This document shows positions 1,039-56,237 of a stretch of DNA of 64,000 nucleotides, one piece after another (within the stretch, counting starts at the first letter, position 1; each line of letters begins with the position of its first letter). The position numbers were made by a program, and so were the translations under genes. This DNA is from a virus. Under the pieces are notes generated by a model, which saw nothing but the letters and a program-made list of their open reading frames with translations, did not search any database and was not told the DNA's origin. Where the stretch lies: the IMG/VR virus record IMGVR_UViG_3300043446_005369, positions 1-64,000 of that record; one strand, 5' to 3'.

Positions 1039-2736
1039 TTAAGCAGGTTTAATAAGAGTACTTCCTGGAGATGCAGGTTTGGGTGCTCCAATTTTTTTAG
1101 GCCCTACAATTTTTGGTCCGACTTTTTTAGGGCCAACACCATATCCAGGAAGTTTCTGTTGAGTTGCCGATTGGGGAGTAATTCCTAGTTGTTTAGTGTA
1201 TTTTTGTGTAGATTTTAATGCGGTCTTATATTCTTGTTTTGCGGCTTTAGATTCGGCTTCTTTTGAATATCTACCAAGATTTAACGCTCTACCAACTCTG
1301 GCAGTAAGCGAAGTGTCTCTCGACTGTATAGATGGTCTTGCTAAGTAAACCGCCTTATTTCCCCTAAAAGCTAAATCTCCAACTTTTTGTTTTCCTGTTT
1401 TTGGATCACGAACTAATTGTGTTGGTGCCAGTGAGGCAGTTTTTCCTCCAGTTGTAATTGTTCGGGCTTGACGATTTACTGTTGCTGGCGTTGAAGTACC
1501 TAACAATGCGGATCCCTTTCTAGTACCATATACACCTTTTTGAGAAGCTATTTCTCTAGCTCCTCTTGTTCCTATAGTAGAACGTGCCTGTGAACTAGCC
1601 TTAAAATAATCTGGAGTACCTTTTGATGGAATAGAAGATGTTGGTTGTCCTGGATCTTTAACTGGTGGTAATCCAGCTTTTCCTCTTTCTTTATTAACAG
1701 TTGCTGGAAATTGCCAACCGATTTGAGGAACGTATATCTTTCTTTCACCACCTCTTGTCAGAGTAGCCCAATCTTTACCTTTTTCTTTAGACCAGTCATG
1801 TGCAGGTGTTGGTTTGGCTGTCCCAGATCTTTGAATTTTTTGAGTTAGATCTTCTATTTTTTTGGCGTCATTAACTCCAGTTGCTTTTGAAATTGCTTGT
1901 CTTGCTGGACGTGTTTTTTCCACTGCCCAATCATATGCAGGTTTTGCGCCAGTGGCAAAAGCTGTACCCAAAGCTAAACTGGCAGCCCCTCTATGTATTG
2001 GATTTCGTATTGGTGATGCAATTTTTGCACCCAAACCATATGCAGCGGCAGTTGTCAAAACACCTCCAGCAGCCTTAGCTTTAGATTGTCCTTCGTCTCT
2101 TCTCTGTTTATATTCCATTGCTGCAGGAATTGTAATACCAGCAGCCGTTCCAATTTTCCCTAATGTGGGTTTCCATTTTATTCCCGATTTAGGTGTCGGA
2201 GTGACTGGAGGTCTTACTGTTTGGTATCTTGCAGATGCAGAAGTTGGTCTACCCCTATATGGTCTTGGGGTTCTTCCACCTGAGGATGGATCTGAAGGAG
2301 GGGTTTCTGCACCTGAAGGCTGTCTAGGAGGTGGAGGTGGTGGAGGTGTTCCTGCTGATCTTCCGGCTCCTGGAGGTGGTGGAGGTGTTCCTGCTGATCT
2401 TCCGGCTCCTGGAGGTGGTGGAGGTGTTCCTGCTGATCTTCCGGCTCCTGGAGGTGGTGGAGGTGTTCCTGCTGATCTTCCGGCTCCTGGAGGTGGCGTT
2501 CCTGCTCCTGAAGGTCTAGCAGTAGTTCTAGCCCATTCTGGGGGCTGACCTGTTTTCTTATATGTTTTAATGAATTCTCTGGCTGCTCGATTCATCTTAT
2601 CAGTTGAATTTCTATCATAAAATATACCCCCCCTTTCATGCACGTGTGGATTATCTTTCAGCCATTTTCTCCATACTACCAAAGGTTCTTCTGGTATATT
2701 CTCGATGATAAAAACAAATTCTCTAAAAGTCTTCAT
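1039..2736 (-). CDS. Hypothetical basic Pro/Gly-rich protein with capsid-targeting-like leader (candidate internal head protein)
   Basis: 565 aa, starts MKTFREFVFIIE; tandem PPPPGAGRSAGTP repeats; C-terminal VGPK repeats; perfect TATAAATA upstream. Confidence 0.8.
   Translation of the reverse strand: MKTFREFVFIIENIPEEPLVVWRKWLKDNPHVHERGGIFYDRNSTDKMNRAAREFIKTYKKTGQPPEWARTTARPSGAGTPPPGAGRSAGTPPPPPGAGRSAGTPPPPPGAGRSAGTPPPPPGAGRSAGTPPPPPPPRQPSGAETPPSDPSSGGRTPRPYRGRPTSASARYQTVRPPVTPTPKSGIKWKPTLGKIGTAAGITIPAAMEYKQRRDEGQSKAKAAGGVLTTAAAYGLGAKIASPIRNPIHRGAASLALGTAFATGAKPAYDWAVEKTRPARQAISKATGVNDAKKIEDLTQKIQRSGTAKPTPAHDWSKEKGKDWATLTRGGERKIYVPQIGWQFPATVNKERGKAGLPPVKDPGQPTSSIPSKGTPDYFKASSQARSTIGTRGAREIASQKGVYGTRKGSALLGTSTPATVNRQARTITTGGKTASLAPTQLVRDPKTGKQKVGDLAFRGNKAVYLARPSIQSRDTSLTARVGRALNLGRYSKEAESKAAKQEYKTALKSTQKYTKQLGITPQSATQQKLPGYGVGPKKVGPKIVGPKKIGAPKPASPGSTLIKPA
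2333..2488. repeat. Coding tandem repeat, 4 perfect copies of a 39-bp unit plus a partial copy
   Basis: ggaggtggtggaggtgttcctgctgatcttccggctcct at 2333, 2372, 2411 and 2450; encodes GAGRSAGTPPPPP on the minus strand. Confidence 0.95.
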
Positions 2737-2758
2737 CTATTTTTTCTTCTTTTTTATA

Positions 2759-2766
2759 TATTTATA
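2759..2766 (-). promoter_or_regulatory. T4-type late promoter TATAAATA
   Basis: Perfect consensus 22 nt upstream of ATG at 2736. Confidence 0.85.
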
Positions 2767-2790
2767 AAAAAAGAGGGCGTTATGCCCTCT
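2766..2790 (-). terminator. Rho-independent terminator
   Basis: AGAGGGC-ataac-GCCCTCT stem-loop followed by a T tract on the minus strand, just after the stop of 2811-3683. Confidence 0.85.
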
Positions 2791-2810
2791 AAAAATTATT
2801 AGTTTTAATT

Positions 2811-3683
2811 TTATCTACCAATCGCTCTGCGTCTGCGAGCAGAGCGATTGGTGTGACTCAGACTATAGTGGCGTCTCCCATCCGAAGTGTCATCATCTCC
2901 ATAGTAACCAGAATCATAGTCACCACTATCTTCTCCAGGTTTAGCGTTTAATCTTTGAATAGATTTTTTATTTGCCTTAATTCTTTCATTTTCTCTTTTA
3001 TTTTCTGATTTCCGATTAGTTACCTCTCTTTTATCTGAGGGCAATCTACCAATAGCATCACGAATTTTTGTAATGTTTTTAGGTTCTTTGTATTTTTCCT
3101 CACCAGACTTAGAACGAACACTCAAAATCCTCTGTGCCTCGTCAAGTACATTTTCAATAATATTTTCTTTCCAATCCTCACTCATATTTGCCATGATTAT
3201 CACTGCATCCTCATAAGTATCCGCATATCCTTCATCTAGAAGATGTGAAAGAATAATATCATAATTATCTACACTTTCATGTTGCGTTGAAGATTCTCTT
3301 GTTTTTCTTGCACCTCGAAGTTCATCATCATCATATTCTGTTTCGAAACGTCTATGAGCCAATCTTACTTGTGTTTTAGTTCTTGGGTGATATTTGGGTT
3401 CATTTCTATTTTTTCTAGCTGCCCTTTTCGTCATAATTCTGTCAACTGCTCCTACACCACTGGCCTTTAATTTTTTATCCACAACATCATCAACTTTTGC
3501 TTCATAAAGATTCCACATATCATCCCAAGTATAATCACTCAAATCATAACCTTCTTCTACAAGAGAGTTTACCCATTCTTCAACTTCTTCCCAAATTTGT
3601 TCTTCAGTAATTTCTTCTGGTTCATAAACTGCACTATATGCTTCCATTAAGCCCCAAGCATCAGTTCCGGTAAGTCTAGTCAT
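2811..3683 (-). CDS. Hypothetical protein with two acidic EGY modules alternating with Arg/Lys-rich segments
   Basis: 290 aa; LMEAY...WVNSLVEEGYDLSDYTWDDM and YDIILSHLLDEGYADTYEDAVIIMANMSEDW modules; own late promoter and terminator. Confidence 0.8.
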   Translation of the reverse strand: MTRLTGTDAWGLMEAYSAVYEPEEITEEQIWEEVEEWVNSLVEEGYDLSDYTWDDMWNLYEAKVDDVVDKKLKASGVGAVDRIMTKRAARKNRNEPKYHPRTKTQVRLAHRRFETEYDDDELRGARKTRESSTQHESVDNYDIILSHLLDEGYADTYEDAVIIMANMSEDWKENIIENVLDEAQRILSVRSKSGEEKYKEPKNITKIRDAIGRLPSDKREVTNRKSENKRENERIKANKKSIQRLNAKPGEDSGDYDSGYYGDDDTSDGRRHYSLSHTNRSARRRRAIGR

Positions 3684-3708
3684 TTGATTATTTTTTTACT
3701 TTATAATT

Positions 3709-3716
3709 TATTTATA
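3709..3716 (-). promoter_or_regulatory. T4-type late promoter TATAAATA
   Basis: Perfect consensus 25 nt upstream of ATG at 3683. Confidence 0.85.
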
Positions 3717-3740
3717 AAAAAAGAGGGCCTAAAGGCCCTT
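3716..3740 (-). terminator. Rho-independent terminator of the nrd operon
   Basis: AGGGCCT-tt-AGGCCCT inverted repeat followed by CTTTTTTT on the minus strand. Confidence 0.8.
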
Positions 3741-3890
3741 CGAAGTCGTATTTCTCAACCAATCTTTTTCATAATCATAATCTCCAAAAAGATATTCATC
3801 TATGACTGCTGCTTCTTTAAAAGCATTTTGTATTTCTTCTTCACACCATTCATCATAATTTCCATCACTTTCAAGAATTTTTGGATTCAT
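3729..3890 (-). CDS. Small acidic hypothetical protein (53 aa, below ORF-track cutoff)
   Basis: MNPKILESDGNYDEWCEEEIQNAFKEAAVIDEYLFGDYDYEKDWLRNTTSKGL; ATGA overlap with the nrdB stop. Confidence 0.6.
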   Translation of the reverse strand: MNPKILESDGNYDEWCEEEIQNAFKEAAVIDEYLFGDYDYEKDWLRNTTSKGL

Positions 3891-11806: not shown

Positions 11807-13123
11807 TTACTTTTTGCTATTTTTATTTATTAAATTAATGCCGTAAGGAACACCACCATATTGTAAATTTTCTTTTCCAGTTCCAATTGCTCCGGGGGTC
11901 ATCTTAGAAGCATATTTAAAATATCCCAAAGTTCCCACTAAAGTATTTGGCTTTTTTGGCATTCTCATAATTCTTGGCATGGATTTTTCAGTATAAGCTT
12001 CATTTACATCTTTAATCCAAGACTTAAACATAATTCCATCTTCAGTAACACAAATTAAGTAGTTCGTGCCTCTTCGAATAATTTTACCACTTAATCCTGT
12101 AGTGACACTTTCAACTTGTTCACCCTCTTTAAAGATATTATTAGCAATATAATTTTCTCTTAAAGATTTTAGGTCATAATCTGGAGCAATTTCCCATGTA
12201 TGATACCCTTCTTGTTGTATCTCTTGTATATTCATTCCTTGGCGAACTGAATCAAAAAGACTTAAGGCTTCCTTATTTTTAATTTCTTTTGGCAATCCTG
12301 CACGGAATGTTATAAAATCACCTTCAGCTGCTGCGAGTCGAAGTCTAGCTGAAGATAATTGATCTAGACTCTTTCCATCTGGATCTATTTCGCCTGAAGG
12401 AATAACTTCAATTGTATCGAATTGATAAAGCTGCCCATTATAACTATTTGCAAGTTTTTCGAATTCTTTTACTCGATCCGGCCCAGTTAAAATTCTAACA
12501 TTTGAATACCCATCATTATGGGCTCTTTTTAAGACATCAAAAATCGAAATTAGATTTGTATCATTAATAATTCTTTCACTATGATATGGATACATTATTC
12601 TCATAAATGAGATTTTAGTATCAGGATCTAAAGGATTTTTCTTTGCATCTTGAGATCTGGAAGGTATAATTACGTATTCATCTCCAGATTCGGCTGCCAT
12701 GTTCATGATTTCAGAGTGCCCAATAGTGGGCGGATTAAATCTGCCGAACACAATTGCCAGAGTTCCTTTGGTCTTTGGAACCGCAGGAGGAGCGATTGTG
12801 GGCTCTTCTGGAGGCATTGGAGGCTGCTCGGCAGGAATCTCTGGTTCCGTCGCCACAGGCTGTTCTGGCTGCACTGGAGGGGCTTGAGATGGAAAGGTGG
12901 ATCCCAAGGGAATATTTTTTTGAAATTCCCCTTGCTTCGGATCCTTTCCTCCGATGATCTGATTTTTATTATAAAACTTTAATTGGCCACCAACAGTTTT
13001 TGCTTCAAATTCTCCCGTAGCTCTATTATACCATCCACCATGCCCATCACCAACATAACCAAATCTTTTTGCTTGAACAGAAGCATAAGATGCTTCCTTT
13101 AAAAATTCCTTAAAGGTTTTCAT
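11807..13123 (-). CDS. Cytidyltransferase-like (HIGH-family nucleotidyltransferase) with capsid-targeting-like leader
   Basis: FGRFNPPTIGH motif, KKNPL, LSSARLR; N-terminus MKTFKEFLKEA; ATAAATA at 13165-13171. Confidence 0.85.
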   Translation of the reverse strand: MKTFKEFLKEASYASVQAKRFGYVGDGHGGWYNRATGEFEAKTVGGQLKFYNKNQIIGGKDPKQGEFQKNIPLGSTFPSQAPPVQPEQPVATEPEIPAEQPPMPPEEPTIAPPAVPKTKGTLAIVFGRFNPPTIGHSEIMNMAAESGDEYVIIPSRSQDAKKNPLDPDTKISFMRIMYPYHSERIINDTNLISIFDVLKRAHNDGYSNVRILTGPDRVKEFEKLANSYNGQLYQFDTIEVIPSGEIDPDGKSLDQLSSARLRLAAAEGDFITFRAGLPKEIKNKEALSLFDSVRQGMNIQEIQQEGYHTWEIAPDYDLKSLRENYIANNIFKEGEQVESVTTGLSGKIIRRGTNYLICVTEDGIMFKSWIKDVNEAYTEKSMPRIMRMPKKPNTLVGTLGYFKYASKMTPGAIGTGKENLQYGGVPYGINLINKNSKK

Positions 13124-13164: not shown

Positions 13165-13171
13165 TATTTAT
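13165..13171 (-). promoter_or_regulatory. T4-type late promoter (ATAAATA)
   Basis: In the intergenic gap upstream of the ATG at 13123. Confidence 0.65.
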
Positions 13172-13250
13172 GTTTTTAAATAGGAACATCAAGATTTGCA
13201 CTTGAATCTATTTTTAATCGCTTTACTAATTAAGCTATGTTCCAGTTCAA

Positions 13251-20597: not shown

Positions 20598-20756
20598 TCA
20601 ATCTCCGTTTCCTCCAGAACTAGAAGAAGACTTCTTTGCACAAGCCTTTCCTCCAGGAGCCATAGCATAAGGTATTACATTATAGCATTTTACTTTTTGA
20701 CCAGAAGATGAATTAATATATTGAACTTTTTCAATAAATTGTTCAAAAGATTTCAT
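20598..20756 (-). CDS. Small protein with capsid-targeting-like leader (52 aa, below ORF-track cutoff)
   Basis: MKSFEQFIEKVQYINSSSGQKVKCYNVIPYAMAPGGKACAKKSSSSSGGNGD; CTAAATA at 20771-20777; terminator downstream. Confidence 0.7.
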   Translation of the reverse strand: MKSFEQFIEKVQYINSSSGQKVKCYNVIPYAMAPGGKACAKKSSSSSGGNGD

Positions 20757-20773
20757 TTGAATTTTTATTTTAT

Positions 20774-21199
20774 TTAGAGATAATCTTTTCTCGCATGATG
20801 ATCTGGTATTGTTTTTTTCAGATAAATGCTCAATAATCCATCTTCGAAAGTTACATCTTTAATAATAACATCATCGGATAAAGTCCAAATTCTCTTAAAA
20901 GATCGAAGAGCAAGACCTTTATGAATATAATTCGTGTTAGATTCTTTATCTTCTTTTTGGCCTTCAACAAATAATTTTCCGCATTCAGTATATACCAATA
21001 ATTCTTTTCGTTTAAATCCGGCTAAAGCAAGTTCTAATTTATTTTCAACACTACTTAGCTGAATATAATTGTATGGCGGATAATTTGAAGTGGTTTCATG
21101 AATATTAAAAATTCTATCGAAATATTCTTCAATACCGATACTATTTTTTGAAATTTTATCCATCAAAGCGGAAAGATCCGCTGAAGTATATTTTGTCAT
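20774..21199 (-). CDS. hsp20: Small heat shock protein (Hsp20/alpha-crystallin)
   Basis: NYPPYN, LELALAGF, YIHKGLALRSF, FEDGLL; AAGGAG ribosome binding site. Confidence 0.95.
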   Translation of the reverse strand: MTKYTSADLSALMDKISKNSIGIEEYFDRIFNIHETTSNYPPYNYIQLSSVENKLELALAGFKRKELLVYTECGKLFVEGQKEDKESNTNYIHKGLALRSFKRIWTLSDDVIIKDVTFEDGLLSIYLKKTIPDHHARKDYL

Positions 21200-36183: not shown

Positions 36184-36216
36184 TGAACCTATTACTCTAC
36201 GCCTGAATGTCCGTAA

Positions 36217-36245
36217 ATTGTAGCACATTTAAAGGGGGTTGACAA
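36217..36245 (-). promoter_or_regulatory. Sigma70-like promoter for gp55-47-46
   Basis: TTGTCA (36245-36240), 17 nt, extended -10 TGc-TACAAT (36222-36217). Confidence 0.7.
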
Positions 36246-38203: not shown

Positions 38204-38611
38204 TTATTTGTCCATATAAACAGGTTTTCCTTGATATGTCCCGGTTTTAACTCTTCCTGATGCAGTTGGTCTGGATTTCATTGTCAGATATGCAGCTCCA
38301 ACGGGTCCTGCCCCTCTCAAATATGGAGCTGCAATTGAAGCTGCTGGAGCTAGAGTTTTGATTGCACCTCCCACAGCACCACCAACTGCTTTTCCTGTAA
38401 TATTTGTTAAAGTATTTGCAACATCACCTGCAGCACCAGTTATAGGATTAAAAGCAGATCCTATACCCTTAATAATATTCCTCGAAACATTTGCTGGATT
38501 TTGTCCACTTACACTTGGAAGACGATTCCAAATATTTCGAGCAACTTGACCTGCTTTAGGTGATAAAGAATTTGCTTGAACTTCTAAAATAAATTCTTGA
38601 AATGTCTTCAT
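38204..38611 (-). CDS. Gly/Ala-rich protein with capsid-targeting-like leader
   Basis: Starts MKTFQEFILE; CTAAATA at 38621-38627; inserted between uvsY and uvsW. Confidence 0.8.
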   Translation of the reverse strand: MKTFQEFILEVQANSLSPKAGQVARNIWNRLPSVSGQNPANVSRNIIKGIGSAFNPITGAAGDVANTLTNITGKAVGGAVGGAIKTLAPAASIAAPYLRGAGPVGAAYLTMKSRPTASGRVKTGTYQGKPVYMDK

Positions 38612-38623
38612 TTTTAATTTTAT

Positions 38624-39055
38624 TTAGTTATATCCAGCAATAAATTTAGACCACTCAATGCTGTTTTTAATCTGAAAAGATCTGTTAGAAACGGTCTTTA
38701 TGATCTCTTCTAGGAACTTCAGCATGGTGTCATAGTAGCGAACCTTCATCTCCGCTTTGGAAAGCCTCTCATCGGCCTCTAGATGCCTCTGTAAGGCGTC
38801 TTTATCCCTCACCTTGTAGGGGAATGGCTCTTGGGCATAAACCTCTGCTGCAGCCTTTCCTGAGTAGTAGTTGTAGCGTTCCAGTTTGATTCTACTTAGA
38901 GTCTCTTTTGCACGTTCTCTGAGTAGAGTTGTGGTATTATATACAGTATAATATTTTGCATGTAGTTGTGGAATTTTTAAAGATTCTTCATGCAGATTAT
39001 CGGGATCAATCACCGAATCTTTTTTCCACATTTCTTCAATATCTTCAAGTGTCAT
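38624..39055 (-). CDS. uvsY: Recombination mediator protein
   Basis: DSVID...ESLKIPQLHAKY...YYSGKA...RSFQIKNSIEW..F.AG. Confidence 0.93.
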   Translation of the reverse strand: MTLEDIEEMWKKDSVIDPDNLHEESLKIPQLHAKYYTVYNTTTLLRERAKETLSRIKLERYNYYSGKAAAEVYAQEPFPYKVRDKDALQRHLEADERLSKAEMKVRYYDTMLKFLEEIIKTVSNRSFQIKNSIEWSKFIAGYN

Positions 39056-39597
39056 AGGGGCTTGTTGTTTTTGTCAAGTATGTTGTAGATAGTATACTTG
39101 AACACTGCCTCTGTTGTAAAGTACTGTATGTCCGATTTTGTCGAATCAAACTCCAATGCAGAAAGTGAAATTGGATATAAATCTTTAAATTTAATCACAA
39201 TATTAGTATTGAAATTACTATCTAAAATTGATAGTGATCCATCACTAAACCCTTTTAATGAATCTTGATTTCCAGCATCATCTGTAATTAAATTTTTATA
39301 TTGTTGCGCAGTTTCTGGAAATCCAAGACCAGTAATCCAATTATGAATAGCACTATAATTTACAAAATCTTCATCTACTAGAAATTTAATGCTAAAATCT
39401 CCATATGAAATTTTATCTCCAGGTACATCAATATCCTTTAAATAGGTGGATTGCGTTTCTGTTGATAAAGTAATATCTGGAATTTTTGCAGAATTACAAA
39501 AGAAAGCTATTTTTGGATTTTTACTAATTGTAAATTTAAATCCTATTGGAGATAAAAAATTCCGATTTGAAATTTGATTCGCAAAAGCGTTTGTCAT
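39052..39597 (-). CDS. gp3: Tail tube terminator / tail completion protein
   Basis: NFLSPIGFKF, VPGDKISY, FLVDED, FKDLYPISLS; follows gp23 as in cyanomyoviruses. Confidence 0.88.
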   Translation of the reverse strand: MTNAFANQISNRNFLSPIGFKFTISKNPKIAFFCNSAKIPDITLSTETQSTYLKDIDVPGDKISYGDFSIKFLVDEDFVNYSAIHNWITGLGFPETAQQYKNLITDDAGNQDSLKGFSDGSLSILDSNFNTNIVIKFKDLYPISLSALEFDSTKSDIQYFTTEAVFKYTIYNILDKNNKPL

Positions 39598-39779
39598 GGA
39601 TTTTTAATTGGAACCAATCTAAATGGAGTATGAGTAACACCTCTTGCTCTAGGACCCATTTGTCCTCTTTTTGCTTTATTTAAATTATCTTGTTCTACTG
39701 ACCCAAGAGGTATTATATTATCTTTTGATATTCTTCTATTATTTGAAGCGTCTTCCAAAAATTGTTGAAAAGATTTCAT
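39594..39779 (-). CDS. Small basic protein with capsid-targeting-like leader
   Basis: 61 aa, starts MKSFQQFLED; CTAAATA at 39795-39801. Confidence 0.7.
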   Translation of the reverse strand: MKSFQQFLEDASNNRRISKDNIIPLGSVEQDNLNKAKRGQMGPRARGVTHTPFRLVPIKNP

Positions 39780-39803
39780 TTTACTTTTTATTTGTATTTA
39801 GAT

Positions 39804-39829
39804 AAAAAAAGAGCCCCTCTCGGGGCTCT
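39804..39829 (-). terminator. Rho-independent terminator of gp23
   Basis: AGAGCCCC-gaga-GGGGCTCT plus T tract, followed by CTAAATA. Confidence 0.9.
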
Positions 39830-39846: not shown

Positions 39847-41259
39847 TCACATTAGATTTTGTACTTTAACTCTTCTGTAGTATACGTTAGAGTTTGCAGT
39901 AATGTTATCAGGTGAAGTAGCAGCAGTAGCACCCTTCGCAAATGGATTCGCAACAATACCATAACGAGTCTTAAATCCAATTTTTGGTTGGAAGGTTTGC
40001 TCACCAACTGCACGTACCATCTGTAGAGGTACGTATGGGCAATAGAAGAGACCTGCATCATAAGGAGAGGCACCCTTATAACCCATTACATAGAATTGAT
40101 TAGCAGAAACGTTTGCGGAATATGGGTCAATGTATACACGATACTTACCCTGAAGAATTCCAGCAAAAGTATTGCCAGTATCATCTACTTGAAGATTTGA
40201 GTTTAGAGCTGGGGTATAATCCAGAACTCCGGCCATAGTTAGTGCAGAAGCAACGTCGGCAGAGCAAAGGATCATATTACCCTTTCCTCTACGAGTTTGC
40301 TGAGCGATAGCGTTGGCATCACGCTCAATCTGGAAAATTAGACCTTTAAACTTCTCAACAGACCAACGGCCATTGGAGTCAACATCAAGGTCAAAAGTAC
40401 CAGCAGTTGCGGTATTAACTTGAGCACCAGGAACAGCAATCTTATAAATGGTACGAATGATCTCACGGTTAATCTCAGCAAGAATCTCAGTGGAGAGAAT
40501 ATTTGCGAGTTCCGCTTCAGCATTCAGACCATGAATAGCCTTTAGGTCCTGAGCAAGCTCAAGTGAGTACTCAGCTTTTAAAGCACGGCTCCTTGCAGTA
40601 ACGGTAAGCTTCTCGATTGAGAAAGCCATTTCGTTAAAGTAAGTTCCAGAACCACCATCACCGAGAGCTTCAGAATCGGCAGTAACCATGCCTTCACCAA
40701 CATTATAAGCCTGTTGATTAGCATTGGTTGCATCAAGAATTGAAGGATTGCTGCCTGAAACTGGTGATGTAGTACCAAGACCAACAGCACCGTCAATAAA
40801 TCCACGATCAAGATTACGTCCTTTATTTTGACCGGAGAAGGAAGAATCAGCTTCATTATAGAAAGCTTCAGTTCCAGTCATGTTATTATAACGGGAACGC
40901 ATTGCAAAAATTAGACCTGTGGGGCCGTTCATTGGCTGAACACCACAAAGATCATATGCAATGAGATTAGGCATTGAACGGCGAATCAGAGAGATTAGCA
41001 CTGGATCAAAACCTGCAACTGGAGTTCCAGTTGTATTTGAAGCACTACCAGTATATCCACCAGTTACACCAGCGGAACTAAAGCTTTGAGTAGGAGCTTC
41101 ATATAGGAAAGAGCGTTCTTCACGTAGTTCTCTTTCTTGGTTCTCTAACAGGATAGCGGTTACGGCTCTACGGTGTGAGTCTGAAATGCGATCCATTCCT
41201 TGATAATCAAGAATTGGTGCCCACTTCTCCTGCAGATACTCTGCGTTATACATCTGCAT
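39847..41259 (-). CDS. gp23: Major capsid protein
   Basis: LQEKWAPIL, DPVLISLIRR, GVQPMNGPTGLIFAMR, ALKAEYS, FYCPYVPL, FQPKIGFKTRYG. Confidence 0.99.
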   Translation of the reverse strand: MQMYNAEYLQEKWAPILDYQGMDRISDSHRRAVTAILLENQERELREERSFLYEAPTQSFSSAGVTGGYTGSASNTTGTPVAGFDPVLISLIRRSMPNLIAYDLCGVQPMNGPTGLIFAMRSRYNNMTGTEAFYNEADSSFSGQNKGRNLDRGFIDGAVGLGTTSPVSGSNPSILDATNANQQAYNVGEGMVTADSEALGDGGSGTYFNEMAFSIEKLTVTARSRALKAEYSLELAQDLKAIHGLNAEAELANILSTEILAEINREIIRTIYKIAVPGAQVNTATAGTFDLDVDSNGRWSVEKFKGLIFQIERDANAIAQQTRRGKGNMILCSADVASALTMAGVLDYTPALNSNLQVDDTGNTFAGILQGKYRVYIDPYSANVSANQFYVMGYKGASPYDAGLFYCPYVPLQMVRAVGEQTFQPKIGFKTRYGIVANPFAKGATAATSPDNITANSNVYYRRVKVQNLM

Positions 41260-41303: not shown

Positions 41304-42473
41304 TCACTTTCTAGCGACTCTACTAAGAGTTTCTAAGTAAGCTTCCATTGCAGGAGATACTGAGGAATACTCGGTATCCCCATCATAGTAAACTTCTTCT
41401 GAAAGAATCTCTGTAGTTTCTCTTTGAGTACTAGTAGTTGAAGGGAAATAAGATTCTCTTAGTGTTACTAGCTTCTCACGATAGTTTTCTTCACCATCAA
41501 ACTCAACATTTTCGGCAAGAGAAGCGAGTTTGTCTTTTTGAGAAAGTGCAAGACCTTCTGCGACATCTGCAAAAATTACATCAGCAACTGACTCGGCTAA
41601 TCTTCTATTAAGAGCAACATTTCTTTCAATTTGCTCGTTGAGTTTTTCTTCCATTTCATCAAGTTTATCTACCATACTCTCGACAACATCATATTTATCT
41701 TCAGGTATTGATACATAATGTTCTTCAAAAAGTTGTCTCATTCCATAAAGAAATGATTCTGTCATTTGATTTTTGATACCCATTTCGACTGCAAGAGCAT
41801 TTTCTTGCATCCATTCGTCTGCAGCATATTCTAGATAAGTATCCAGACGATCTGTGAGTTCTTCTTTAATAACTTCAATTTCTTCTACGAGTGCATTCTC
41901 GTAGGTTTCTTGAAGTTGCTCTTTAATTTCTGAAACTTTAGAACGAATCGCAGCTTCAAAAATAGTGCGAGCCTTTTCTTGAAATTCTTCAGAAAGATCT
42001 TCACCATCTAGAAGAGCACTGACATCTTCATCGATATCAAATTCCTCTTCCATTTTCTTTTCTTCAGTCTCTTCGTCTTCGTCTTCTTCGTCGTCTTCGG
42101 CTTCTTCAGAAACTACGTCTTCGTCCTCATCATCTTCTAGATATTCGTCTTCATCTTCAACTTCTTCTTTCATTCCTTGACCTGGAAGTCCAACAGGAGT
42201 TGCTGAAGTACGTGGACCTTCGGCAGCTTGAGCCCTAGCATTGACTACATTTCGTACCTGTGCTAAAGTTGCTCCAGGTGTTCTGAGAACAGCTGAATCA
42301 TCATCAGGACGATAATTTTCGGGAGTAGGGCCACCTAAATCTTCCCAAGCTCCAGTTTGTCCAGGAATCATAACTCCTGATGCATTCTGTGCAATGCCTT
42401 GCATTGGATCGGCAGCTGAAGCCCCTTTGGTTACTACGTTTTCCATTTCTTGTAAATTTCTACCAACGGACAT
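41304..42473 (-). CDS. gp22: Prohead core scaffolding protein
   Basis: Highly acidic, LSEEFQEKARTIFEAA, YLEYAADEW; between gp21 and gp23. Confidence 0.95.
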   Translation of the reverse strand: MSVGRNLQEMENVVTKGASAADPMQGIAQNASGVMIPGQTGAWEDLGGPTPENYRPDDDSAVLRTPGATLAQVRNVVNARAQAAEGPRTSATPVGLPGQGMKEEVEDEDEYLEDDEDEDVVSEEAEDDEEDEDEETEEKKMEEEFDIDEDVSALLDGEDLSEEFQEKARTIFEAAIRSKVSEIKEQLQETYENALVEEIEVIKEELTDRLDTYLEYAADEWMQENALAVEMGIKNQMTESFLYGMRQLFEEHYVSIPEDKYDVVESMVDKLDEMEEKLNEQIERNVALNRRLAESVADVIFADVAEGLALSQKDKLASLAENVEFDGEENYREKLVTLRESYFPSTTSTQRETTEILSEEVYYDGDTEYSSVSPAMEAYLETLSRVARK

Positions 42474-42510: not shown

Positions 42511-43161
42511 TTATAAATTTGAAAGAAACTCTTGGAACAATTTTACTTTATGTTCTTGAAGTGTTCTTTCATCAACAAGTGTATTAATTCTCTTTTTTGT
42601 GGATTCTACAAGTTTTTCCTGAAGAATACCTCCACTCCACACCCACTCTTTTCCTTCCATAATACCCTGAACAAATGCGTCAGGGGCAGAAGGATCCGCT
42701 ACAATGTCTGCAGCAGTAGCCAACATAAAATCTTCTCCAACAATTTTATGACCTTCATTAGTCATTTTTAATGATCCGACACCACGAGAAGAAACTCCCA
42801 AACATACACCTTCATGAATAAGAGATTTTGCAATCTTACCCATTGGAGTTTCAAGAAGTTGAGCCTTACCTACAAAATTTCTACCTTCTTGACGAAGAGA
42901 TACAATTTTATGTGAAACTCGATCTAAATTTACAGTAGGTCCATCAGGATGTCCTAATTCGCCAAGAGCACGACCTTTATTGATAAATGATTCTGAATAA
43001 CGATTTACTTCACGGCGAAGTGTTTCTAATGGATACATTCTTCCATTACGATTACAAATGTCTCCTTGAAGGAAAATACCTTCAATAAACATTTTTTTCT
43101 CAGATCCCTTACCTTCGGTAATGAATTTTACTTTTTGAGCTTCTTCTGTGATGAGTTTCAT
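42511..43161 (-). CDS. gp21: Prohead maturation protease
   Basis: MKLITE, NRNGRMY, ALGELGHP, GVSSRGVGS, DIVADPSAPDAFV. Confidence 0.97.
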   Translation of the reverse strand: MKLITEEAQKVKFITEGKGSEKKMFIEGIFLQGDICNRNGRMYPLETLRREVNRYSESFINKGRALGELGHPDGPTVNLDRVSHKIVSLRQEGRNFVGKAQLLETPMGKIAKSLIHEGVCLGVSSRGVGSLKMTNEGHKIVGEDFMLATAADIVADPSAPDAFVQGIMEGKEWVWSGGILQEKLVESTKKRINTLVDERTLQEHKVKLFQEFLSNL

Positions 43162-43894: not shown

Positions 43895-43902
43895 TATTTA
43901 TA
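43895..43902 (-). promoter_or_regulatory. T4-type late promoter TATAAATA
   Basis: Perfect consensus overlapping the gp20 stop codon. Confidence 0.8.
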
Positions 43903-46846
43903 TTTTTCCACCTTTAGGATTGGGAATTTCCACCGCAGAGGTATTCATAGATGGTTCAATTGGTGTTTCTCCGGTTGGGGATTGTTCTACTCCTTGAGGG
44001 ACACCACCTTGTTGATCCGTCGCAATGGGGTTTCCAAATTCATCTACTGGTTGATTTGGATTTGGTAAAATACCTTTATTAATTTCATCTTCAATTTGCA
44101 TATCAATTTCAATGATTTCGGAATCAGTTTGACGCAGAATTTTTTTACGAATGTATTCTGTGGAATAATATTTCCCGATATATGGCTCAATTGTAGTTGC
44201 AAGTGTTAAACGATTTGTCATCAATTCTGCTTCCTTTAATTCGGCAAAATGATTATCATAAAGAAAATCATACTGAATATGATCTGCCATTTTCTCCCAA
44301 TCTTCAGGAGAAACGATGTTTTTAAGAATTAGTTGACTTCTCAGAATATCATTAAAAACATTTGCGAATTTTTTTCTTAATCTTCCAACAAATTTGGAGA
44401 ACATTAATTCGTCACGAAGAATTTCTGAAGATCTACCTAGATTAAATCCATCTCCACTACCAGCAATTCTAGATTCAGGAACTCCAAGTGCTCTATAAAG
44501 TTTTTTCTGAAAATATTGAATATCGCTGAGTTCACCTAAGTTTTGACCGCCTGGAAGAGTTGTAATTTCTGTTCCTCTTCCACCTTCTCTTCTAGGAAGC
44601 CAGAAATCTTCTAGCATACTCATGAATTTGCGATCATCTCTTATTTCACCTGTGTTTGCGTCATATACCAATTTATTCCTATAACGAGACATAACTTCTT
44701 TTAAGTATTGCTCAGCTTTTACTTTAGGAAGATTGCCGACATCAATGTAAAAAATTCTACGTTCAGGAGCCCTCGAATTATGAACTACAATACCGTTCGC
44801 CACAAAATTATGCTTTTCATGAGAAACTTCAATATCATAAACATCCTCGACTTCTGCAGTTTCCACAGAAATAATTTTTTCAAATTTTGGAAGTTCATAT
44901 TCACTTAAATACAATTCCCAGCATTGAGTTTCTGGAATTAATCTTGTCTTATTTTCCTCACCTATAATTCTTGTTTGTTCTGGTCGGATTCTATGGCGAA
45001 TTTGTCCGGAACAAAGGCCAATTGAAGTCCAGATTTCTTTAATATCTTCAATAAGCTGTTTATTTGCTAAAGAAATTTCACATGAAAATCCATTTACTAG
45101 ATCTCTATAATGTCCATCTGCATCTAGAAGTCCAAGAATAAATTCTCTTTTAATGTTATTTGGGGATGTAAATACCCAATCTGGAATTCTCTTAATTTTA
45201 GCTCCATTTTTAAATCCAAGCTTTTGCAGAAGTTCCGAAGCAAGCGTGTTGCTTGAATGGTAATTACTATATTTTCTATTAGATTTTGACCTCGTACAAT
45301 TACCAAAAAACTTTTCCATCAACTTACTATAATATAAGTTTTGAATCTCATCTTCACCTTCTGCGAATGTTACACCATATTTTGTAATACATCCATCACC
45401 AATTAAAAATCCAAATAGTCTTGCAAATTCTTCATCGATATATTCTGGAAGATTTAGTTGATTTGTACCCCAACCATATAGTTTTTCCTCGAATTTTGCA
45501 TCTTTAAGTACTTCAATTTCTTCTTGAAGTACTGCAACATCAGAAGATTCTAATGACTGAGATCCATATAAGAAATTTTGAATACTACTCCTATTGATAT
45601 TAGTTTTTTCTGAAATTTGTTGTATAACTTTTTCTTTATTGTCAATTTTATAGGAGGACCACAAGAAAGTATCTTTTAGTTTATAGCATTTTTCTCGAAC
45701 TTCTGGAAATGCAGTTTGAGTAGAGCATTCTTCTGGTCTAATGTAAGTTAAACTATGTCTTTTTGGTTGAAGATCTTTGATAGGAACGTACTTCACGTCT
45801 TTAGTCTCATTATCATAAACGAGAACTGGGTGAGTATCGGTTCCTACAACACTATGATGCTTAGACTGAACTCTAAAAGACTGTTTAGTTCCAGTTAACC
45901 ACTTATTAGATACAGTTGTTTCAACTAATTTATCAACACGATTATCATAACTATAAACTTTATCTCCAACTTGAATATCTTTAATGTATGAATAACCTTT
46001 GTCTGTTTTTACTCGGGTATCTCCAATTAAGCAAAGGCGATAAATTACCAAAGAATCTTCAATCATTCTAAGTTGATTGAGAGCCTTAATTGCTTTATGT
46101 AAATAAGATAAAATAGTTCCTTTATTGCGATCTACAAGCCCCGAAGTGCAATATGTAATAGAGTCTTTTGCAATTTTAACTCCCTTTTTGGATCCTCCGG
46201 AAATAGTTCCACTTGGAAAATTAGGAGTCGGAGTATACACAAAATACTCTTCAATTTCAGGAAAGTTATATTGTTGAGCATCAGTTCCATCATTTAGTCT
46301 AAAATTCTTATACTTATCCGCACCATTCGAAGTTCTTTTCTCTTGACGCACATGCTTCATTTTCATTGGATCAATATATCTCAATTCCTGAATTCCTTTC
46401 TCAGGATTTTTTTGATCAATGACTTTTAAATAGAATAATCTTCCATCCACATACCAATTCCTAAAAATTTCATGGCATTTTTTATCAAAATCCATGATTT
46501 CTTTAATATATTTAAATTCTATTCGAATTAGTTCTTTTAATCTATCACTCGCATTTAAATTTGATAGTTCAATTTCAACTGGAGAATCATATAGGTCACT
46601 GACAATAGCTTCATTGACTACACTTTCAATTGCACCTTCACATTCTGGATGTAAAGCCATTTCTCGGTATCTTCGAATCAAGTCGTACTCAGTTCGATAA
46701 ACACCTTCAATATCTACATATTGACCATAAAATCCAGATTGAATAAAATGATCAACCCCGTCCTCATTATTTGCGGGAACGGGGGAAACTATAGATTTAG
46801 ATTTTTTATCATTATCATCAATTGAAAAACCAAAAAGTTTTGCCAT
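43898..46846 (-). CDS. gp20: Portal protein, intein-containing
   Basis: MAKLFGFS, WYVDGR, SYLHKAIK, EDSLVIYRL|SRAPERRIFYIDVGNLP, EDFWLPRREGGRGTEI; exteins total 563 aa. Confidence 0.97.
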   Translation of the reverse strand: MAKLFGFSIDDNDKKSKSIVSPVPANNEDGVDHFIQSGFYGQYVDIEGVYRTEYDLIRRYREMALHPECEGAIESVVNEAIVSDLYDSPVEIELSNLNASDRLKELIRIEFKYIKEIMDFDKKCHEIFRNWYVDGRLFYLKVIDQKNPEKGIQELRYIDPMKMKHVRQEKRTSNGADKYKNFRLNDGTDAQQYNFPEIEEYFVYTPTPNFPSGTISGGSKKGVKIAKDSITYCTSGLVDRNKGTILSYLHKAIKALNQLRMIEDSLVIYRLCLIGDTRVKTDKGYSYIKDIQVGDKVYSYDNRVDKLVETTVSNKWLTGTKQSFRVQSKHHSVVGTDTHPVLVYDNETKDVKYVPIKDLQPKRHSLTYIRPEECSTQTAFPEVREKCYKLKDTFLWSSYKIDNKEKVIQQISEKTNINRSSIQNFLYGSQSLESSDVAVLQEEIEVLKDAKFEEKLYGWGTNQLNLPEYIDEEFARLFGFLIGDGCITKYGVTFAEGEDEIQNLYYSKLMEKFFGNCTRSKSNRKYSNYHSSNTLASELLQKLGFKNGAKIKRIPDWVFTSPNNIKREFILGLLDADGHYRDLVNGFSCEISLANKQLIEDIKEIWTSIGLCSGQIRHRIRPEQTRIIGEENKTRLIPETQCWELYLSEYELPKFEKIISVETAEVEDVYDIEVSHEKHNFVANGIVVHNSRAPERRIFYIDVGNLPKVKAEQYLKEVMSRYRNKLVYDANTGEIRDDRKFMSMLEDFWLPRREGGRGTEITTLPGGQNLGELSDIQYFQKKLYRALGVPESRIAGSGDGFNLGRSSEILRDELMFSKFVGRLRKKFANVFNDILRSQLILKNIVSPEDWEKMADHIQYDFLYDNHFAELKEAELMTNRLTLATTIEPYIGKYYSTEYIRKKILRQTDSEIIEIDMQIEDEINKGILPNPNQPVDEFGNPIATDQQGGVPQGVEQSPTGETPIEPSMNTSAVEIPNPKGGKI
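44777..46033 (-). mobile_element. Intein in gp20 (419 aa) with LAGLIDADG homing endonuclease
   Basis: Begins CLIGDTRV, block B GTDTHPV, GFLIGDG and GLLDADG, ends DVYDIEV...VVHN followed by Ser+1. Confidence 0.95.
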
Positions 46847-54161: not shown

Positions 54162-54874
54162 TAGATTACCCTCCAAGAATTACCTTTCCATATAAATGTT
54201 AAACTACCATAATCATAAGCAAGAATTGCACGATCTCTACCATCAATCAAATCATCCCCTGAAGGTAGTATTGTAATATATCTATTCGTTCCTTTGGATG
54301 CTTCTCCTAACTCATCTTTAACTACAAATATCTTTCCTTGCCTATCTGCTTTTGGAAGTCTAATTGATACTGCACCTGAATAATTAACTCCAATATAATA
54401 ATCTCTAGGTGTAATTGTATAGAATGATGTAGTTACCGAAGTAACTGGCACATCCATAAATGCGAGATTTGTTTCACCACCTCCACCAAGAGTAGAAAGT
54501 TGTTGTTGAATTCTCTCCAAAAATAACTTATAATGTTTTTGCAAATCTTCATGTGTTGCAAAATTTTGATTTATTGGAGTGATTGGATCTTCTTTTTGTT
54601 TAATATTTGATGGTTCAGATAAAAGTCCCAAAGATTTTTCTATCAATGTCTCTTCCTTCAAGGGAGGAGGAGAAATATTACTTAAATTACCAAAATCATC
54701 AGGAGGATCTGGTAATTTAATTTTTTTATCTTTTAATTTTTTCTTTACTTTGTTATCTGGATATATAAAATTTTCAAATTCTTTTAGAATTTTCTTATCC
54801 TTTTCAATTTCTTCATTTTTTTGTCGTCTTTCTTGAGCTATTAATTTAAAAAAATCAGATAATTCGTTGCTCAT
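54161..54874 (-). CDS. Hypothetical protein with C-terminal fibre-type beta domain
   Basis: Charged N-half, GGGGE linker, DYYIGVNYSGAVSIRLP...GKIFVVKDE...W. Confidence 0.7.
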   Translation of the reverse strand: MSNELSDFFKLIAQERRQKNEEIEKDKKILKEFENFIYPDNKVKKKLKDKKIKLPDPPDDFGNLSNISPPPLKEETLIEKSLGLLSEPSNIKQKEDPITPINQNFATHEDLQKHYKLFLERIQQQLSTLGGGGETNLAFMDVPVTSVTTSFYTITPRDYYIGVNYSGAVSIRLPKADRQGKIFVVKDELGEASKGTNRYITILPSGDDLIDGRDRAILAYDYGSLTFIWKGNSWRVI

Positions 54875-54875
54875 A

Positions 54876-56237
54876 TCAGCAATTCCAGGATCTTAAGGAT
54901 TTATTGATCCTCGAATTTGGATCTCTTGCTGTTTTCGCTGAAGTTAATTTTTTCTTCATTCCAGTCATACGTGAGCAAAAGCTCTTTCTTCTATTCCAGG
55001 CTTTTTCTCCTTTTTTGAGTTTTGAAGGATCTTTAGTTACTGCAGTTTTTAACTTTGAGCCGGGATTTTCTTTTCTATAAGATTCAACACCAGCTTTATT
55101 CAATCCTCCGGATTCCCTTTTCCCTTCTTTACGTTGCCAAGCTGCGGTTTTAGCTTCAAGTACAAATTGCTCAAAAGTTTTAAGTTTTGAAGGATGTATA
55201 GAAGCAGCTTGTTTTCGATCAAATTTTTCTTGTTCAGCATCTTCTCCAATATAATTGCCATCAGGATCATAATGTGCTACATCTAATTTTCTAGATTTAT
55301 TTTTAGCTAAAGGAAATAGTTTAGCTCCAGTTGGTTTTGGCTCTTGATCTTTTGGATAAATTCTTTTTCCTTTTTCGCCTTTAAGGCCAGGGGCATTTGG
55401 CAATACTGGACCACGTTCTACGTTCTCTTTCATTTCACCACTATCTACATAATCCGCAGCAGAATCTAGATAGTCGGCAGCTTTTGTGATTTTTGATTGC
55501 ACCCACGCCTCGATATTTCCTTCTCCCTTCATTTTTTTACGAAGTCTTTTTACAGCAGATGAAATTGTGTAAAGTTCTGATCTTGCCATAGAATGCTCAT
55601 GATCAACTGCTTCTGGCATATTTCCGGGATGTGGTGTATTTGGAGTGTATTTATTTCCCAAACGTATTGGCTGGGAAAACATATCCCAAACTCGTTCTCC
55701 ATATTTACACTCATTTCTGGTTTCATTTTTATTGCATTTAGGGCAATATCTGACACCATTCGATTCGGCCACTGGCACACAATTCGGAACTTCTTTGCCA
55801 TTTTTTATTTTTGTGCGTGGAGTTCCTAATTTTTTTCCTGACCAACATTTGCTTGCTCCAACATTTTTTCTAGCTTGTTTAATTCCCTCATCAATCTTTA
55901 AGGTTTTGGGGTATCCTTTTTCACCTTTTTTTGCTGGACGTTCACCACGGGCTCTCTTTGCATGAATGTTATCCCATAAGCCCATTTTTTCTTCATTTAC
56001 ATCCTTAAATTTTTTATGGTTTTTAATTGCAGATTTTTCCATTTTTTTAAGTCTTGTGTAATAATCGGGAATTTCGTCCAAATGTTGAAGAGCAATATCA
56101 GTAGCTAAATCTTTATCTTTAGTATGTTCATGTTCAATTTGAACTCCCATCTTGAGTTGATTTTGAACAAATGAAACATCTAAACGATGTTTTTTTGCTA
56201 TGCTTTCTACTGTGCTATGAGATTTTATTTGAGTCAC
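54876..56237 (-). CDS. Modular basic hypothetical protein (candidate protease-processed polyprotein)
   Basis: 453 aa, GTG start; IEHEHT...HLDEIPDYY, CW...NCV, CPKC, EAWVQSKITKA, internal LKTFEQFVLE, RRKSFCSRM...WNC; CTAAATA at 56258-56264. Confidence 0.8.
   Translation of the reverse strand: MTQIKSHSTVESIAKKHRLDVSFVQNQLKMGVQIEHEHTKDKDLATDIALQHLDEIPDYYTRLKKMEKSAIKNHKKFKDVNEEKMGLWDNIHAKRARGERPAKKGEKGYPKTLKIDEGIKQARKNVGASKCWSGKKLGTPRTKIKNGKEVPNCVPVAESNGVRYCPKCNKNETRNECKYGERVWDMFSQPIRLGNKYTPNTPHPGNMPEAVDHEHSMARSELYTISSAVKRLRKKMKGEGNIEAWVQSKITKAADYLDSAADYVDSGEMKENVERGPVLPNAPGLKGEKGKRIYPKDQEPKPTGAKLFPLAKNKSRKLDVAHYDPDGNYIGEDAEQEKFDRKQAASIHPSKLKTFEQFVLEAKTAAWQRKEGKRESGGLNKAGVESYRKENPGSKLKTAVTKDPSKLKKGEKAWNRRKSFCSRMTGMKKKLTSAKTARDPNSRINKSLRSWNC

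Follow-up and report, generated by a model that had tools for sequence, protein, structure and literature searches.

Five open reading frames (ORFs) scattered along the DNA of an uncultured phage begin with nearly the same short peptide, which raises the question of what this peptide does. The window, that is, the whole stretch of DNA analysed, is 64,000 nucleotides long and belongs to a contig of 84,375 bp, an 84-kb piece of a freshwater T4-like cyanophage of the Kyanoviridae. A sequence-only reading had taken the peptide for a T4-type capsid-targeting leader used as a plug-in tag on otherwise unrelated cargo, and had held that a frequency no higher than at random ORF starts would speak against it. 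We found all five N-termini as it had described them (MK[TS]F.[EQ]F..E, all on the minus strand; Table 1), and a six-frame scan of the entire contig returned the motif 6 times with no other copies; a looser form of the motif gave one extra match, KKTFKEFVAKGE, within ORF 22176-23120. Among 74 genes, chance would yield 0.0003 such N-termini by overall composition and 0.0007 by position-specific composition, and the Poisson probability of at least five was < 1e-17.

All-against-all BLASTP revealed no match among the five cargoes or between them and other contig proteins, except for a 127-aa stretch common to the 565-aa protein and ORF 3-995; the cargoes are unrelated to one another, as had been claimed. 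The leader is acidic and amphipathic. Three of the copies end in ILE, LKE or IIE and two in FLE or FIE; these last two are the shortest (9 residues) and carry Phe three positions before the presumed cut, where the T4 rule is Leu or Ile, so that cleavage there is uncertain. The codons of the conserved leader residues differ from copy to copy, indicating selection on the peptide rather than on the RNA. The pI of the mature cargo is 9.6-11.4 in four of the five, compared with a proteome median of 5.9, and searches of Pfam, PHROG and NCBIfam revealed no enzyme domain in these four.

In T4, ipII and ipIII begin with MKTYQEFIAE and ipI with MKTFKEF, just as the earlier reading had quoted them, and a back-translated pattern picked out only ipI, ipII, ipIII and gp61.1 in the 168,903-bp T4 genome (reversed control, 0). 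The capsid targeting sequence (CTS) was reportedly defined by Mullaney and Black in 1996. Mutagenesis of the T4 CTS assigned targeting mainly to residues 4 and 7 and processing to residues 8 and 10 (PMC9026906). Since the head-loading peptide of T4 stands at the start of five late genes here, their products are most likely packaged, and we consider it quite probable that the five ORFs encode T4-type head-internal cargo proteins with the leader as CTS. In the proposed mechanism, the first 9-12 residues (M-K-x-F-x-x-F-hydrophobic-x-E) would act as the CTS and, late in infection, attach the protein to the gp22 scaffolding core while the prohead is being assembled; a gp21-family protease would then cut after the Glu of the leader, the mature, mostly very basic proteins would remain in the head beside the DNA, and the cargo would probably exit with the DNA at the next infection. 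The leader would be a portable address that this aquatic T4-like clade has put on many mutually unrelated proteins, enzymes among them.

Profile matches identified the head genes gp20, gp21 protease (Peptidase_S77), gp22 scaffold and gp23 on the contig. The gp21-type protease is presumed to be the enzyme that takes off the leader, the gp22-type protein is its putative docking partner, and gp23 has a candidate maturation site, FLYE/A, at residue 54. The phage also encodes the late sigma factor gp55, in a gene split by an intein. The likeness to T4 IPI, IPII and IPIII covers a near-identical N-terminal leader, Glu at the presumed cut, the gp21 and gp22 homologues, small basic mature proteins, and variable bodies behind a constant leader. 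In T4, however, the ip genes lie in two small loci, whereas single cassettes are scattered here; the host and phage family are different (Kyanoviridae, freshwater), none of the cargo bodies shows homology to IPI, IPII or IPIII, two leaders have 9 residues with Phe three before Glu, and one cargo is a 438-aa enzyme.

Table 1. Leader genes, their upstream elements and head-assembly genes in the window.
Feature	Position	Strand	Evidence and remarks
565-aa cargo, leader MKTFREFVFIIE	1039..2736	-	Pro-rich repeats, Gly/Ala-rich hydrophobic stretch, conserved basic C-terminal domain
Terminator-like hairpin and T-run (2766-2789), then TATAAATA (2759-2766)	2759..2789	-	Upstream of 565-aa gene (start 2736); read from the sequence
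438-aa cargo, leader MKTFKEFLKE	11807..13123	-	PF01467 28.2 bits (cut-off 21); phrog_395 4e-87
CATAAATA, late-promoter-like 8-mer	13165..13172	-	41 nt before ATG at 13123
52-aa cargo, leader MKSFEQFIE	20598..20756	-	51-59-aa two-Cys peptide family; cluster of 6; S-SRM01 157606
TCTAAATA	20771-20778		Before 52-aa ORF (start 20756)
135-aa Gly/Ala-rich basic cargo, leader MKTFQEFILE	38204..38611	-	Between uvsY and uvsW; insertion relative to S-SRM01
ACTAAATA	38621-38628		Before 135-aa ORF (start 38611); ends 9 nt from ATG
61-aa basic cargo, leader MKSFQQFLE	39594..39779	-	Directly downstream of gp23
Terminator-like hairpin; TCTAAATA	39804-39829; 39795-39802		Before 61-aa ORF (start 39779)
gp23 major capsid protein	39847..41259	-	PF07068 3e-150
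gp22-type scaffolding core protein	41304..42473	-	PF25623 T4_CASP 1.6e-79, 267 bits; phrog_237
gp21-type prohead protease	42511..43161	-	PF03420 Peptidase_S77 1.5e-35, 122.9 bits (cut-off 27); phrog_207 9e-82
gp20 portal protein, intein-interrupted	43898..46846	-	PF07230 1e-182 in two stretches; Intein_splicing and LAGLIDADG_3
453-aa multi-module basic protein	54876..56237	-	DUF5661 N-terminal, DUF6321 C-terminal

Behind its leader, the 438-aa protein has three domains: a small, conserved one with GDGHGGWY, then, after a Pro/Glu linker, a nucleotidyltransferase domain with the HIGH motif, and a small one rich in beta structure. The protein is 53.9% identical to PSSM2_194 of P-SSM2 (T4-GC190) and, judged by sequence, is a direct orthologue of cyanophage T4-GC190. 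Foldseek with the AF2 model returned NaMN/NMN and phosphopantetheine adenylyltransferases as the nearest structures (E ~1e-6), and the NCBIfam NMNAT models scored far under their cut-offs. The Rossmann-like fold typical of HIGH-motif nucleotidyltransferases is thus matched, and the (T/H)xGH motif is present as GRFNPPTIGH, in which Gly, Arg, Phe, Asn, Pro, Pro and His are invariant in an alignment of 14 sequences (the window protein and 13 of 30 homologues). The leader was found at the start of 30/30 cytidylyltransferase homologues; in the alignment, its only invariant positions are M1, K2, F4 and F7, the last two of which are the T4 targeting positions; position 8 is hydrophobic, and a Glu falls at position 10 or close to it. 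The same catalytic domain occurs without the leader, as bare proteins of 178-190 aa, in RaK2, PA5oct, CBB and MED4-213, and the S-CRM01 version carries it.

T4-GC190 is listed as a cyanophage core gene, 'cytitidyltransferase', and its peptides were detected by mass spectrometry in purified S-SM1 virions (PMC3037559). The S-SM1 protein begins with MKKFSAFLNE and is thus a leader-bearing orthologue of the 438-aa protein; the section reporting this detection does not tie its presence in virions to an N-terminal targeting leader, and our literature searches found no published link between the two. That purified cyanophage particles should contain a nucleotidyltransferase was an oddity in the published record, for which the leader would offer a simple explanation.

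Homologues of the other cargoes also carry the leader. It was present on 65/69 homologues of the 565-aa protein, with 3 of the remaining 4 resembling truncated gene calls; the mature part of this protein has a pI of 10.8 and matched nothing in Pfam, PHROG or NCBIfam. Among 1.84 billion representatives, the 135-aa cargo had only 3 distant relatives, and both small ones begin with the leader, although the alignments begin at residue 42. The cultured relative S-SRM01 has 9 leader ORFs; its orthologues of both the 52-aa and the 61-aa protein keep the leader, and a 56-aa leader ORF occupies the same place as the 61-aa gene. Gene callers often miss or truncate such genes, as with the very short 52-aa ORF and with the 565-aa ORF, whose public call is shortened to 359 aa (P0002).

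Clustering of 90 leader ORFs (85 from IMG/VR and the 5 of the window) gave 54 cargo clusters, 42 of them singletons. Pfam cut-offs were passed by 3/20 cargo proteins scanned (ART-PolyVal, GNAT and DUF5661), and the ART-PolyVal domain lies behind the leader in one IMG/VR locus, L050. The earlier reading had also proposed scanning related genomes; by BLASTX to T4-like references, 108/120 loci with the pattern were T4-like, compared with 32/113 control IMG/VR loci matched by the reversed pattern (P = 3e-23), and 12/120 pattern loci had no T4-like gene within the locus DNA examined. The catalytic domain that is bare in RaK2, PA5oct, CBB and MED4-213, together with DUF6321, which is mostly leaderless, marks the leader as an add-on. 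The proposal of a plug-in tag on diverse cargo is supported in that the leader is kept on orthologues, cargo families vary and the same enzyme occurs leaderless elsewhere. Syn9 carries the leader on its cytidylyltransferase only, and the genome scan of S-PM2 found no leader ORF, suggesting that the expansion is clade-specific and could partly reflect ancestry.

Each leader ORF had further been credited with its own late-promoter motif. An xxTAAATA 8-mer precedes 5/5 leader ORFs, its end 9-41 nt from the ATG. TAAATA was found 11-50 nt upstream of 5/5 leader ORFs and 18/69 other ORFs (Fisher P = 0.002), and its strand-wide density predicts ~3/74 genes with the motif in this span. For the ORF starting at 38611, the motif leaves almost no 5' UTR, so that a promoter of its own is doubtful.

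It is possible, but in our judgement rather unlikely, that the leader-packaged proteins are structural or physical head contents, which neutralise or organise DNA or help ejection, and not host-directed effectors. T4 IPII and IPIII are often assumed to be DNA-organising or ejection-aiding head contents, and the four basic mature proteins here are low-complexity and without an enzyme domain. The position of the 61-aa gene, fixed after gp23 in S-SRM01 too, likewise suggests a conserved structural role. The 135-aa cargo, however, is a near-orphan inserted relative to S-SRM01 and so looks more like a fast-evolving accessory gene than a core structural one; moreover, one cargo is a nucleotidyltransferase, and leader-bearing proteins of related phages include an ADP-ribosyltransferase and a GNAT acetyltransferase. 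T4 Alt is a packaged, gp21-processed ADP-ribosyltransferase (PMC9026906); it resembles the 438-aa cytidylyltransferase and the ART-PolyVal cargo of L050 as enzyme-as-cargo and differs from the 438-aa nucleotidyltransferase in enzyme class.

A non-capsid role of the N-terminus, for example as a translation-enhancing start, a tag for regulation or degradation, or a signal for the membrane or for secretion, is very improbable. Well-expressed genes often have AAA as their second codon and early codons rich in A/T, but the conserved positions are amino acids with varying codons, and they match those needed for T4 targeting and processing (PMC9026906). An acidic, amphipathic leader is also unlike a hydrophobic signal peptide, the motif occurs chiefly in T4-like contigs, and leader-bearing T4-GC190 is among the S-SM1 virion proteins (PMC3037559). 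In favour of such a role, T4 gp61.1 has the leader, and the portions of literature and annotation consulted describe no virion role for it, so the leader alone is no proof of packaging. We give hardly any credence to a single paralogous family by descent, with bodies diverged past recognition and no portable tag. Some leader genes are true paralogues (e.g., S-SRM01 82315 and 83142), and low-complexity modules are common to several cargoes; against descent alone stand the leaderless occurrences of the catalytic domain and of DUF6321, the 54 clusters among 90 ORFs, and two proteins, P0060 and P0062, that are 94% identical over 391 aa with different N-terminal modules.

Read as CTS-bearing cargo, the five ORFs add a new group of phages to those with a known T4 mechanism; the mechanism itself is not new. 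Two papers already describe the CTS as a modular address shared by diverse internal proteins of T-even phages (PMC3012670, PMC9026906), so the novelty had been rated too high; our literature searches found no paper on CTS-type leaders in cyanophages. Giant phages such as SPN3US and phiKZ similarly have many head-internal proteins cut after Glu by a T4-related prohead protease, but no such short N-terminal leader is reported for them. The leader may serve as a predictor, from sequence only, of capsid-carried proteins in uncultured T4-like cyanophages. Such proteins would reach the host before phage gene expression, and anti-defence and host-takeover factors are expected among them. With its nine leader ORFs in a cultured phage, S-SRM01 is a ready system for the packaging prediction.

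The sixth, internal copy that had been noticed, LKTFEQFVLE, is present at 55155-55184, at residue 352 of the 453-aa ORF and right before DUF6321; its Leu codon is CTT, so that it is no hidden start. Elsewhere, in L036 and its cluster, leader plus DUF6321 make up a protein of their own, DUF6321 being usually without a leader, and a fusion junction is the best reading of the internal copy. The polyvalent proteins that phages and conjugative elements encode, reportedly treated by Iyer et al. in 2017, are comparable in the small modules strung together in the 453-aa ORF and in the ART-PolyVal domain behind the leader in L050; they differ in that the modules here are mostly separate leader-bearing genes and not one giant protein.

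The near-identical bodies and unlike N-terminal modules of P0060 and P0062 indicate recent exchange at the junction. On this cargo, the leader is swapped for an alternative acidic N-terminal module of ~65 residues ('LMEAY...EEGYDLSDYTW') that ends at a hydrophobic-x-Glu site. Tentatively, aquatic T4-like phages might use combinatorial packaging signals, namely the CTS leader (9-12 residues), the ~65-residue acidic module and leader-like internal junctions; if all three steer proteins to the prohead and mark where they are cut, the complete injected proteome of these abundant phages could be read from sequence, and nucleotidyltransferases, ADP-ribosyltransferases and acetyltransferases would be part of it. 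The acidic module heads two further late ORFs in the window, 3-995 and 2811-3683, and pieces related to it were found at 26595-27455 and 29749-31521.

The leader resembling the T4 capsid targeting sequence (CTS), an N-terminal segment of 9-12 residues with the pattern MK[TS]F.[EQ]F..E, was confirmed by sequence and translation at exactly the five N-termini and the one internal site named by the sequence-only reading. A six-frame scan of the entire contig returned 6 copies of the motif, on the coding strand every time, and the relaxed form added one match, internal to ORF 22176-23120. The expectation from amino-acid composition was 0.0003 to 0.0007 such N-termini per 74 genes. The protein bodies behind the leader (cargo) are unrelated, as had been claimed, with no BLASTP match among the five; BLASTP revealed a 127-aa stretch common to the 565-aa protein and ORF 3-995. 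An xxTAAATA 8-mer was found upstream of each leader gene, ending 9-41 nt before the start. TAAATA lay 11-50 nt upstream of all five leader genes compared with 18 of the 69 other genes (P = 0.002), bearing out the proposed enrichment. The claim that each leader ORF has its own late promoter stands for the presence of the motif, whereas for gene 38611 it is uncertain because the motif-to-start spacing is so short. Since a terminator-like hairpin directly precedes genes 2736 and 39779, these two look like self-contained cassettes.

The contig (84,375 bp, 33% G+C; the window is its first 64 kb) is a partial genome of a T4-like myovirus. The minus strand carries 74 of the 76 picked ORFs, and tail sheath, tail tube, terminase, UvsY and UvsW are encoded along with the other head and late genes tabulated below. 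The closest cultured relatives are Kyanoviridae, with the freshwater Synechococcus phage S-SRM01 first and the Prochlorococcus phage P-SSM2 next, and the sequencing runs containing contig DNA carry freshwater-metagenome labels; the contig may derive from one of these runs. Intein or LAGLIDADG matches were observed in three oversized late or packaging genes (gp55, gp20 and gp17), and the structural region contains two giant ORFs, 60101-67357 (2418 aa) and 68951-80395 (3814 aa), partly outside the window.

Head and late genes of the contig, and leader-bearing loci on other T4-like contigs
Feature	Coordinates	Strand	Description	Domain evidence
gp23	39847-41259	minus		PF07068, 3e-150
gp22-type scaffold	41304-42473	minus		PF25623
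gp21-type protease	42511-43161	minus		PF03420 (Peptidase_S77)
gp20 portal	43898-46846	minus	982 aa	Intein_splicing and LAGLIDADG_3 above cut-off; Portal_T4 match in two pieces
gp17 terminase	50192-52915	minus	oversized, 907 aa	LAGLIDADG_3
gp55	34756-36228	minus	oversized, 490 aa	weak intein/LAGLIDADG matches
Locus L050	6037-6813		leader-bearing ADP-ribosyltransferase	ART-PolyVal, 1e-23
Locus L081	3231-4265		leader-bearing GNAT acetyltransferase	Pfam
Locus L074	6423-6971		leader-bearing, GGYKPPTKGH motif	no Pfam match

Conservation of the leader does not depend on which cargo it heads. The 438-aa protein corresponds to the cyanophage core gene T4-GC190, labelled cytidyltransferase, and the leader was present at the start of all 30 IMG/VR homologues, which were retrieved with peptides taken from the enzyme part. 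When the window protein was aligned with 13 of these 30 homologues, leader positions M1, K2, F4 and F7 were invariant, and these include the positions marked for targeting by T4 genetics. As cargo it carries a HIGH-motif nucleotidyltransferase, for which an AF2 model of moderate quality (mean pLDDT 63.8; disordered termini and linker) predicted a fold nearest to NaMN/NMN and phosphopantetheine adenylyltransferases. Assignment of a substrate was rejected on three counts: all PDB sequence matches had E values of 0.16 or worse, scores for the NCBIfam NMNAT models were far under the cut-offs, and NMNAT and PPAT were not separable by Foldseek.

For the 565-aa protein, 65 of 69 homologues start with the leader; among the other four, three resemble truncated gene calls, the public call for the window gene being one of them, and one has a different N-terminal module. 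The public call for gene 1039-2736 on the minus strand (P0002) is 359 aa and begins at an internal Met, and homologues covering 97-100% of the protein support the full 565-aa, leader-bearing reading. A short repeat, VGPKIVGPK, was seen near the C-termini of this family (P0003-P0064) and also in the 590-aa ORF 29749-31521. Compared with S-SRM01, the contig has the 135-aa gene inserted between uvsY and uvsW; the 52-aa and 61-aa proteins have leader-bearing counterparts in that phage, and the 61-aa gene directly follows gp23 in both. Searches with the 135-aa and 61-aa proteins by tblastn against phages and by word-based methods returned only the proteins themselves, and distant relatives emerged from local tblastn and an exhaustive HMMER search. 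The latter yielded just three distant relatives of the 135-aa protein among 1.84 billion representatives; each of the two small relatives has the leader at its start, although the aligned region reaches no further upstream than residue 42.

A bare, leaderless version of the nucleotidyltransferase's catalytic domain (178-190 aa) is encoded by three jumbo phages (RaK2, PA5oct and CBB) and by Prochlorococcus phage MED4-213, and in S-CRM01 the leader stands immediately before the nucleotidyltransferase. Judged by sequence arrangement, the leader is an add-on to cargo proteins. The sixth copy (LKTFEQFVLE, 55155-55184) was considered as an internal start and rejected, its Leu codon being CTT. It sits in ORF 54876-56237 where a leader-DUF6321 protein would join other modules, and stand-alone proteins of this composition do occur (locus L036 and its cluster). 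We read the internal copy as a probable fusion junction, which may still be a cleavage site. DUF6321 as an obligate follower of the leader was discarded: among its 80 best IMG/VR relatives, the MK-type leader was found in none and an ML or leader-like form in 4. The 453-aa product of this minus-strand ORF, located between a gp16-like gene and structural genes, reads as small basic modules in series (DUF5661, Cys-rich pieces, DUF6321), pieces that are combined differently in S-SRM01, P-SSM2 and Syn9 and are also found as stand-alone genes.

To sample the leader in IMG/VR, we scanned one narrow DNA form of it, ATGAAAAC..GAR, so that the counts represent a sample and not a census. At least 126 matches were obtained in at least 120 loci. 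Among the 126 matches listed, 108 contained the full motif, 101 had an upstream stop no more than 15 codons away, and 57 had TAAATA within 70 nt. BLASTX matches to T4-like reference genomes were found for 108 of the 120 loci among the matches listed, compared with 32 of 113 reversed-pattern loci (P = 3e-23); counting matches of at least 150 bits, the numbers were 93/120 and 16/113. After trimming of the first 12 residues, 85 listed IMG/VR ORFs together with the 5 window ORFs formed 54 cargo clusters, including 42 singletons. A Pfam scan of 20 cargo proteins placed 3 above the curated cut-off (ART-PolyVal, GNAT and DUF5661) and 2 below it, and 15 gave no match. The motif in the cargo of locus L074 suggests another nucleotidyltransferase. 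Across complete genomes, the strict motif gave counts of 8 in S-SRM01 (9 if the looser form is admitted), 2-3 in P-SSM2 and 4 in T4, and it was absent from S-PM2; Syn9 has a loose motif only, on the cytidylyltransferase, and HTVC008M shows between one and three matches, all loose. Expansion of the leader is therefore a feature of a single clade.

In the complete T4 record, the back-translated pattern matched four times (ipI, ipII, ipIII and gp61.1) and the reversed control not at all; translation of the ip genes verified the T4 leaders quoted previously. Passages of PMC9026906 report that the first 10 residues of IPIII are enough for packaging, that residues 4 and 7 of the T4 CTS dominate targeting while 8 and 10 serve processing, and that T4-like phages may load a range of proteins by way of the CTS. 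A passage of PMC3012670 describes T-even internal proteins as diverse, with the CTS as their sole common feature. The CTS concept is therefore already established for T-even phages. No paper connecting the CTS or internal head proteins to cyanophages was found in the full-text literature, subscription journals aside, and Petrov 2010 (PMC2993671) makes no mention of internal proteins, CTS, capsid targeting or IPI. Within the same literature, MKTFKEF and MKTFQEF had no match and MKTYQEFIAE occurred in a T4 vaccine-platform preprint only; no full-text paper was found for the label 'cytitidyltransferase'. T4 gp61.1 (NC_000866 18966-19130, locus L126) is a 54-aa hypothetical protein adjoining the primase gene; it starts with MKTFKEFIKE, a full CTS-like leader, and has no TATAAATA within 70 nt upstream. 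Its orthology to the 52-aa family was unconvincing, as aligned similarity was confined to the leader and a GD.G stretch.

In section 26 of their paper, Sullivan et al. 2010 (PMC3037559) report that the putative cytidylyltransferase T4-GC190 was detected when purified S-SM1 virions were analysed by mass spectrometry, and this section draws no link to any targeting leader. The N-terminus of the S-SM1 product is MKKFSAFLNE. Packaging is supported for one orthologue, by data of others. In the proposed sequence of events, leader genes would be transcribed late, the leader-bearing protein would dock on the gp22 core, and the Peptidase_S77 protease would cleave behind the leader's Glu; the mature cargo would be retained with the DNA and probably exit with it at infection. 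Of these events, only those at the level of sequence are demonstrated here; cleavage and injection we infer from T4.

The motif itself is real, and an address tag on diverse cargo is the best available interpretation of it. A function of the leader unrelated to the capsid is very unlikely, given that its codons vary, that it matches the functional positions of T4, that it is largely confined to T4-like contigs and that T4-GC190 was detected in virions. Descent of the leader genes from one diverged paralogous family is highly improbable: leaderless homologues exist, and the N-terminus is swapped between two homologues of the 565-aa protein, P0062 carrying an acidic N-terminal module in place of the CTS leader and its cargo being 94% identical to that of P0060 over 391 aa. 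The suggested range of cargo (an enzyme, short and low-complexity proteins) was found as one nucleotidyltransferase and four low-complexity proteins, all strongly basic when mature (pI between 9.6 and 11.4, with 5.9 as the median of the proteome). For the basic proteins, it is possible, though we consider it the less likely reading, that the cargo is packaged in a physical, DNA-associated role and not as an effector. With the address tag preferred, these results describe a known T-even-type system, here broadened to include cyanomyoviruses from fresh water and the sea.

The acidic module, of about 60 aa (LMEAY..VY...EEGYDLSDYTW), forms the N-termini of ORFs 3-995 and 2811-3683 (minus) and recurs at the C-terminus of 26595-27455 (minus). 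ORFs 26595-27455 and 29749-31521 (minus) share a related L-Y-E-A start, and a related EGYA...MSE.W module is common to 2811-3683 and 29749-31521; TAAATA lies 26-31 nt upstream of all four. In several proteins the acidic module ends at a hydrophobic-x-Glu site beside a basic body, and from its sequence it could be a candidate second kind of propeptide. Two acidic-module proteins flank the 726-aa ORF 27483-29663 (minus), which matched phrog_459 'peptidase' (3e-246) and had no Pfam match.
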